Shown here in pieces: positions 12,064 to 12,136 of a stretch of DNA of 64,000 nt. Location: contig CADBGN010000007.1 in NCBI GenBank assembly GCA_902794155.1, positions 19,182 to 83,181 of the forward strand, read 5' to 3'. This DNA is from an uncultured Bacteroidia bacterium (GTDB lineage Bacteria; Bacteroidota; Bacteroidia; Bacteroidales; F082). A program made the position numbers and the translations under genes. The notes beneath the pieces are model-generated. The model did not search any database and was not told where the DNA came from. It saw nothing but the letters and a program-made list of their open reading frames with translations. Each line of letters begins with the position of its first letter. Positions within the stretch are counted from its first letter, which is position 1.

Positions 12064-12136
12064 TTTTTTTTTTTTTTTTTTTTTTTTTTTTTTTTTTTTT
12101 TTTTTTTTTTTTTTTTTTTTTTTTTTTTTTTTTTTT
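12064..12136. repeat. 73-nt homopolymeric T tract (poly-A on the ATPase-coding strand)
   Basis: Counted directly: 7 + 50 + 16 T. It lies 8 nt upstream of the ATPase-2 start codon and 10 nt downstream of a -7 box. Confidence 0.95.

Follow-up and report, generated by a model that had tools for sequence, protein, structure and literature searches.

How can a run of 73 identical bases stand directly in front of an intact bacterial gene, and does it have any bearing on the expression of that gene? The question is raised by the 64,000-nt stretch of DNA analyzed here (the window), in which the predicted 5′ leader of an ATPase gene consists mostly of a single homopolymer. Answering it requires knowing whether the run is real, where it came from and what it could do. 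The reading that we favor, and consider probable, is that of a microsatellite born by slippage in a permissive leader devoid of Shine-Dalgarno (SD) pairing, carried by one clone and having, in all likelihood, a modest effect on expression.

The tract and its genomic setting

The run comprises 73 uninterrupted T on the forward strand, i.e., A73 on the strand of the ATPase gene, bordered on the forward strand by ...TTCATTATTCATC on one side and GTATTCGCTGCAAAATTA... on the other. Read on the reverse strand, the order is the -7 box TAATTTTG, CAGCGAATAC (10 nt), A73, GATGAATA (8 nt) and the ATG at 12055 (Table 1); the coordinates given in the initial annotation, as well as its distances from the -7 box to the tract and from the tract to the ATG, are all correct. 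The chance of a 73-nt run is 0.25^73, about 1e-44 per position. All the other A/T runs in the window measure 9 nt or less, T73 being the sole exception, and the whole 3.28-Mb metagenome-assembled genome (MAG) holds 274 A/T runs of 8 nt, 41 of 9 nt, two of 10 nt and one each of 11, 14, 15 and 73 nt. Genome-wide microsatellite instability is ruled out by this spectrum, which stops at 15 apart from A73. The left and right flanks of the tract are each unique in the MAG. The next-longest homopolymers of the MAG, A15, T14 and T11, are located at C56:13186-13200, C122:48-61 and C49:16381-16391, respectively.

The product of the gene carries an AAA_14 P-loop domain in its N-terminal part and a DUF4143 domain in its C-terminal part, as assigned by Pfam. 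Over residues 1-423, i.e., in full length, it is matched by a model (PDLC04790, E 8.1e-61) of the PADLOC candidate defence family PDC-S01, and it can be regarded as a candidate anti-phage gene by family membership only; a search of NCBIfam returned no family name for it.

Table 1. Features of the ATPase locus, with positions in the window, and alleles of the tract found in other samples with the same flanks (X, sequencing runs; L, loci in public assemblies).
Feature	Position	Strand	Basis or remark
165-nt junction segment, first copy	10625-10789	.	direct-repeat family D3
Intact 425-aa AAA_14 + DUF4143 ATPase gene	10778-12055	-	Pfam 5.6e-14 and 8.4e-31
GATGAATA spacer, tract to start codon	12056-12063	-	sequence
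A73 (T73 on +) mononucleotide microsatellite, predicted 5′ leader	12064-12136	-	long and short alleles at the same site elsewhere
CAGCGAATAC, 10 nt from -7 box to tract	12137-12146	-	predicted transcription start here
-7 box TAATTTTG, consensus TAnnTTTG	12147-12154	-	also in 123/137 distinct upstream regions of relatives
Candidate -33 element TTTG, 18-nt spacer to -7 box	12173-12176	-	from the -33/-7 consensus (PMC7366714)
Three 23-nt phased direct repeats (CCGAA...ACAAAY), upstream of promoter	12192-12258	-	direct-repeat family D7
165-nt junction segment, second copy, 86% identical	12271-12435	.	direct-repeat family D3; the pair brackets the ATPase cassette
C-terminal remnant (91 aa) of a further DUF4143 ATPase, upstream of cassette	12451-12726	-	ORF
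Allele CATC-T10-G			X5, X8; flanks identical to window
Allele A8-GATG			L174; flanks identical to window
Allele A10-TG (12063 G to A)			X2, X4, L161, L172, L179
Allele A9-TG			X3, L162
Allele A5-GATG			X6, X12, L163, L170, L171, L173, L175

A long run in independent assemblies

The source genome is a scaffolded short-read MAG of 205 contigs, obtained from cattle rumen/gut metagenomes and containing N gaps of 15-77 nt, so that an assembly artefact, already envisaged in the initial annotation, had to be taken as a serious possibility. A short real run would then have been turned into 73 T by a false path through a poly(T) node of the assembly graph, or by the filling of a scaffold gap. The nature of the assembly would favor such an event, as would the great abundance of poly(T) words in these metagenomes, whose summed depth reaches 1e4 to 1e5, and the existence of sister samples with short alleles.

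Nevertheless, long runs are found at this very site in other assemblies. The exact 425-aa protein was matched in 21 contigs of public assemblies, and ten of these 21 were examined at the 5′ end. Five of the ten (L164-L168) end inside an A run directly 5′ of GATGAATAATG, with terminal runs of A70, A59, A53, A52 and A49 in front of an identical 425-aa gene. They originate from different samples and several projects, and were produced by MEGAHIT (k141, k127) and by scaffolders; thus, five independent assemblies made with different assemblers place A49-A70 at exactly this junction. The 91-aa remnant served as an anchor to retrieve the right flank in other assemblies, and a sixth scaffold, from another project (L177), joins both flanks, reading promoter, GAATAC, A44, N32 and then the ATPase from codon 11. 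At least 22 contigs of other assemblies contain this remnant in identical form.

Contigs of individual runs point in the same direction. In run X1 (0.99 of the sampled words shared; probably the source sample), Logan k=31 unitigs entering the run from unique sequence read CATC+T27 and, from the opposite side, T24+GTATTCG, and none of the Logan contigs of this run crosses the tract with a short run. Likewise, in run X7, which belongs to another study, a Logan k=31 contig enters the run from unique sequence with CATC+T24. The two runs thereby give lower bounds of at least 28 T and at least 25 T, and neither has a short-allele branch. An artefact of assembly is essentially excluded where the existence of a long run is concerned, and we hold it to be a very improbable account of the tract; error would be possible in the precise number 73 alone, which is the reading of the one assembly that crosses the run, namely the window's own MAG.

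Among the seven long-allele assemblies, five are broken inside the run and a sixth carries a scaffold gap. Breaks located in the tract or about 30 nt before it occur in L164-L168, L176, L178 and L180. Such breaks probably cause very long homopolymers to be under-reported in short-read MAGs.

An allele series on a near-invariant gene

The 1278-nt coding sequence of the ATPase differs by 0-1 bases across samples (no mismatch among the long, A10-TG and A9-TG contigs, one in the A5 contigs), and the run in front of it is A5, A8, A9, A10 or at least 44-73 (Table 1; runs X9-X11, X13-X20 and X40-X45, which have no usable coverage of the locus, were left out). In the A9-TG and A10-TG alleles the G at 12063 is replaced by A, merging a base of the spacer into the run. 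Such a series on a coding sequence with 0-1 differences indicates that the tract mutates orders of magnitude faster than the surrounding DNA. Moreover, A5 occupies the tract site in the six nearest assembled relatives, none of 157 relatives with readable upstream sequence (loci encoding 72-99% identical proteins) has a run above 8 within 80 nt of the start, their longest runs being of 2-8, and the eight other DUF4143 paralogues of the MAG with readable upstream sequence have ordinary leaders. The expansion is therefore private to this lineage. On the comparison of these sequences, A73 is the extreme allele of a hypermutable repeat that measures 5-10 bases in otherwise identical strains.

The slippage-prone nature attributed to the tract in the initial annotation is borne out by this series. 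The view that a short A run has undergone extreme expansion here, as also proposed there, holds as well, given the A5 of the true orthologues at the same site; the support that had been drawn for it from another DUF4143 ATPase of the window ("copy 1", 3807-5159) does not. The two genes had been paired as copies 1 and 2; they are distant family members that share Pfam families alone (BLASTP E=0.02), and no homology links the two leaders. That of "copy 1", which was quoted correctly save for two omitted bases (TATATTTGCAGCG TC AAAAATCTCAAAAAGGTGTTTTGTA ATG), is consequently uninformative on the ancestry of the tract, and it was discarded as the ancestral state in favor of the A5 ancestor provided by the true orthologues. 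Upstream of the gene at 3807-5159, at about 5170-5265 on the reverse strand, lie three direct repeats of about 33 nt, each made up of AAAAATCTCAAAAAGGTG and then TATATTT[A/G]; boxes resembling TAnnTTTG are present in the last two, and TTCCGTGTCTACTTT motifs recur farther upstream.

Origin and spread of the expansion

The tract is a genuine chromosomal poly(dA:dT) microsatellite of an uncultured rumen Bacteroidales lineage. Its most likely origin is replication slippage from the A5 of the orthologues, via the A8-A10 alleles that still circulate, followed by a later expansion to about 70 bases in one haplotype, which is now present in many animals. The alleles are, however, bimodal (5-10 versus at least 44), with no smooth ladder of the kind that simple slippage predicts, and this argues against a stepwise process; intermediate alleles of 11-43 were absent from the approximately 25 samples. 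It also speaks against the favored reading that a run of about 70 bp persists in a genome whose spectrum otherwise ends at about 10-15.

The gap between A10 and at least A44 could be accounted for by a one-step insertion, e.g., through reverse transcription of a polyadenylated RNA or through repair synthesis. Even so, the run lies exactly at the A5-A10 site of the orthologues, both of its flanks are unchanged, and it is accompanied by neither foreign sequence nor a target-site duplication, which makes this origin extremely unlikely. In a similar vein, the left and right flanks run collinear with the short-allele loci, and neither a foreign insertion nor a recombination junction at the tract was therefore retained as an explanation.

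All the long-allele contigs share the downstream context of the window, so that the long allele marks one haplotype found in many animals. Short-allele contigs differ from the window at 85 of 377 nt downstream, and their gene content there is also different: among L161-L170, genes for 170-aa, 70-aa and GYF_2 proteins stand in place of the Sel1 gene. Identical coding sequences, diverged downstream regions and 165-nt repeats on both sides (the segment at 10625-10789 comprises the 3′ end of an 81-aa coiled-coil ORF, a spacer and the last ATPase codons) suggest that the ATPase cassette was recently exchanged by recombination. The long alleles may represent one clone and would then inform little about stability and selection.

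Promoter, leader and translation

The locus fits the Bacteroidota sigma-ABfr promoter, with TAnnTTTG before the start and TTTG 18 nt upstream of it (about 17-23 nt expected). This architecture is conserved: TAnnTTTG is found 14-63 nt before the ATG (mode 19) in 123 of the 137 distinct upstream sequences of relatives. At the present locus the distance from the box to the ATG would be 23 nt with A5 and is 91 nt with A73. As the tract lies downstream of the -7 box, promoter spacing is unaffected by its length. There is no TAnnTTTG between A73 and the ATG of the ATPase, and expression would hence require transcription through the tract from the predicted start. According to the Bacteroidota promoter consensus (PMC7366714), on which the predicted start site is based, some 4-6 nt of RNA would precede the tract. 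Farther upstream, two to six 23-nt phased CCGAA repeats precede the promoter in about 130 of the 137 distinct relatives (loci L001-L160); this array resembles a conserved operator, to which the ATPase itself might bind.

Bacteroidota initiate translation without SD pairing, and initiation is favored by adenines at -3, -6, -12 and -13 and by low structure (PMC6847099). Furthermore, the most frequent 5′ UTR length in Bacteroides is 23 nt, the median being 32 nt, and 13.5% of the 5′ UTRs of Bacteroides thetaiotaomicron are longer than 100 nt (PMC7366714). Given this A-rich, low-structure, SD-less mode of initiation and the existence of long UTRs in Bacteroides, a poly(A) leader of about 70 nt should be tolerated. 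A gain in initiation is not predicted: A5 alone spans -9 to -13, so that the adenines at -12 and -13 are already present, and the unpaired probability that RNAfold predicts around the AUG is 0.98-0.99 for every length from A5 to A73. Since the predicted fold leaves the start region open whatever the length, the idea of a structural switch in the leader was dropped. A 7-codon uORF (MNNEKRI*) overlapping the ATPase start begins at an out-of-frame ATG 7 nt upstream of that start, and this upstream ATG is retained in the nearest relatives, with the exception of L082, which has GACG.

One should thus expect about 70 nt of templated poly(A) in the 5′ leader of the ATPase mRNA. RNA polymerase slips on A/T runs of 9 or more, hence a heterogeneous leader length is to be expected; slippage of this kind would probably affect the leader considered here. 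The expansion would be tolerated and near-neutral, Bacteroidota being able to initiate without SD pairing on unstructured A-rich leaders, and its net effect on expression would probably be modest.

The metatranscriptome runs contain homologues at 95-97% identity or the A5 allele. In the RNA run X22, near-identical ATPase fragments end short of the 5′ end, and none of the RNA runs covers the 5′ end of the gene in the long-allele strain. RNA-labelled A5 contigs of X24 and X25 reach about 50 nt (~45+9) upstream of the tract (window 12132-12185), crossing the -7 box and extending to about the -33 element; this extension could reflect read-through, an upstream start or DNA carry-over. In the poly(A)-selected "gut metagenome" RNA libraries X25, X26, X27 and X30, the ATPase is almost the sole covered part of the region 6000-18000, the coverage arising through homologues at 95-97% identity. 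Family abundance or A-rich leaders could each account for this bias.

Could the tract have a function?

In the initial annotation, the tract was proposed to be a hypermutable switch or rheostat of expression, or else a poly(A) leader of unusual efficiency. A functional role would take the form of a contingency element, the length of the tract tuning or switching the expression of the ATPase. Several routes could be conceived for it: mRNA stability, loading of ribosomes or S1 on poly(A), polymerase slippage near the start, or DNA structure. Tracts of the (dA)n·(dT)n type, at roughly the present length, can adopt a triplex structure when under superhelical stress. The payoff would be a heritable spread, within the population, in the expression of a costly defence-type gene. 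Hypermutability of the locus next to an invariant coding sequence is what such an element would display, and the gene, a PDC-S01 candidate defence gene, belongs to a variable island, a kind of gene and location in which phase variation is established as common (review PMC11868660). In addition, many samples, belonging to several projects, contain the long allele, and the gene is intact in the haplotype that carries it.

On the other hand, the tract is placed outside the -33/-7 spacer and outside the ORF, so that the two known routes of switching by repeats are inapplicable. A5 already supplies the favored adenines, and the predicted accessibility is the same at all lengths. Besides, a single haplotype carries the long allele, and its spread may therefore be due to clonal hitch-hiking. 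Altogether, we regard a contingency function as unlikely; a regulatory role of the tract is an unproven possibility. A more specific version, in which about 70 nt of DNA-encoded poly(A) in the 5′ leader would set the output of the candidate defence gene as a leader-based contingency rheostat of a new kind, appears to us rather improbable. Were it true, the tract would exceed in length every other mononucleotide repeat known to be maintained by a bacterial lineage in the wild, and it would act via SD-independent loading of ribosomes or S1, or via polymerase slippage and mRNA turnover.

The opposite strand offers another conceivable role. There, T73, i.e., U73 in the RNA, could stop or insulate read-through on the forward strand from the convergent operon that ends at 10729, shielding the downstream leader and operon from transcription antisense to the ATPase. 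Long U runs destabilize elongation complexes; the operon does converge on the ATPase, and the run is at the far end of the antisense path. Yet no G+C-rich hairpin precedes the run on the forward strand, and T5 suffices in the orthologues, which leaves this role with a very slight probability.

Significance

A slippage-born microsatellite that is nearly neutral would be of interest as a marker of microsatellite dynamics and of the spread of clones between animals. Whatever its effect, a wild rumen lineage harbors this run of about 70 nt, in many animals and several studies, within a phylum that dispenses with SD pairing; very long homopolymers can thus exist in bacterial chromosomes, yet they are systematically lost from short-read assemblies. 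Moreover, the locus links hypermutation to a widespread and uncharacterized family of ATPase-nucleases suspected of phage defence. The natural series of A5, A8, A10 and about 70 bases on an identical gene could provide a test of leader length and poly(A) in SD-independent translation and in mRNA stability.

Comparison with known systems

The closest known relatives in mutational behavior are the simple sequence repeat (SSR) contingency loci, whose homopolymeric tracts have been described in Neisseria, Haemophilus, Campylobacter and Helicobacter (review PMC11868660). As in these loci, a mononucleotide repeat stands beside an accessory gene and its length varies between otherwise identical strains, in keeping with what slipped-strand mispairing would produce; repeat beside a gene and length polymorphism among near-identical genomes are the features of the class that are found here. 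The likeness is one of mutational behavior, a link between length and expression and its reversibility being predicted by the class only. Known SSR tracts measure about 6-30 nt, are located in an ORF or a promoter spacer, and give ON/OFF or graded output (PMC11868660), whereas the present one is of about 70 nt and sits in a 5′ leader, where neither frame nor spacing depends on length.

A further likeness is with the "rheostat" of Helicobacter pylori sabA (PMC4081817), in which a poly(T/A) tract near the promoter is strongly length-polymorphic, with T5-T22 in isolates and T10-T28 in another collection. That tract lies next to the -35 element and works through DNA geometry and the binding of RNA polymerase (PMC4081817); ours begins 10 nt downstream of the -7 box, and its length exceeds twice that of the longest sabA allele quoted. 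A promoter-spacer or UP-region rheostat of the sabA type was rejected, the tract being downstream of TAATTTTG and the position of the promoter being conserved in 123 of 137 relatives.

Poxvirus late mRNAs (PMC5690424) share with the predicted ATPase mRNA a long unstructured 5′ poly(A) before the start and polymerase slippage on an A/T run. Their leaders are, however, non-templated and used by eukaryotic ribosomes, while here the run is encoded in the DNA of a bacterium and any translational advantage would be hypothetical. For the same reason, that the run is DNA-encoded, untemplated poly(A) of the poxvirus type was rejected.

Finally, the locus resembles the leaders of Bacteroidota (PMC6847099, PMC7366714) in its TAnnTTTG promoter, the lack of an SD sequence and the adenines at -3, -12 and -13. 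Typical leaders of the phylum are heteropolymeric and of about 23-32 nt; this one is predicted to measure about 86-91 nt, 73 of them A. Set beside these systems, the tract is an extreme variant of a familiar repeat element, and it offers a good natural setting in which to test poly(A) leaders of SD-less bacteria.
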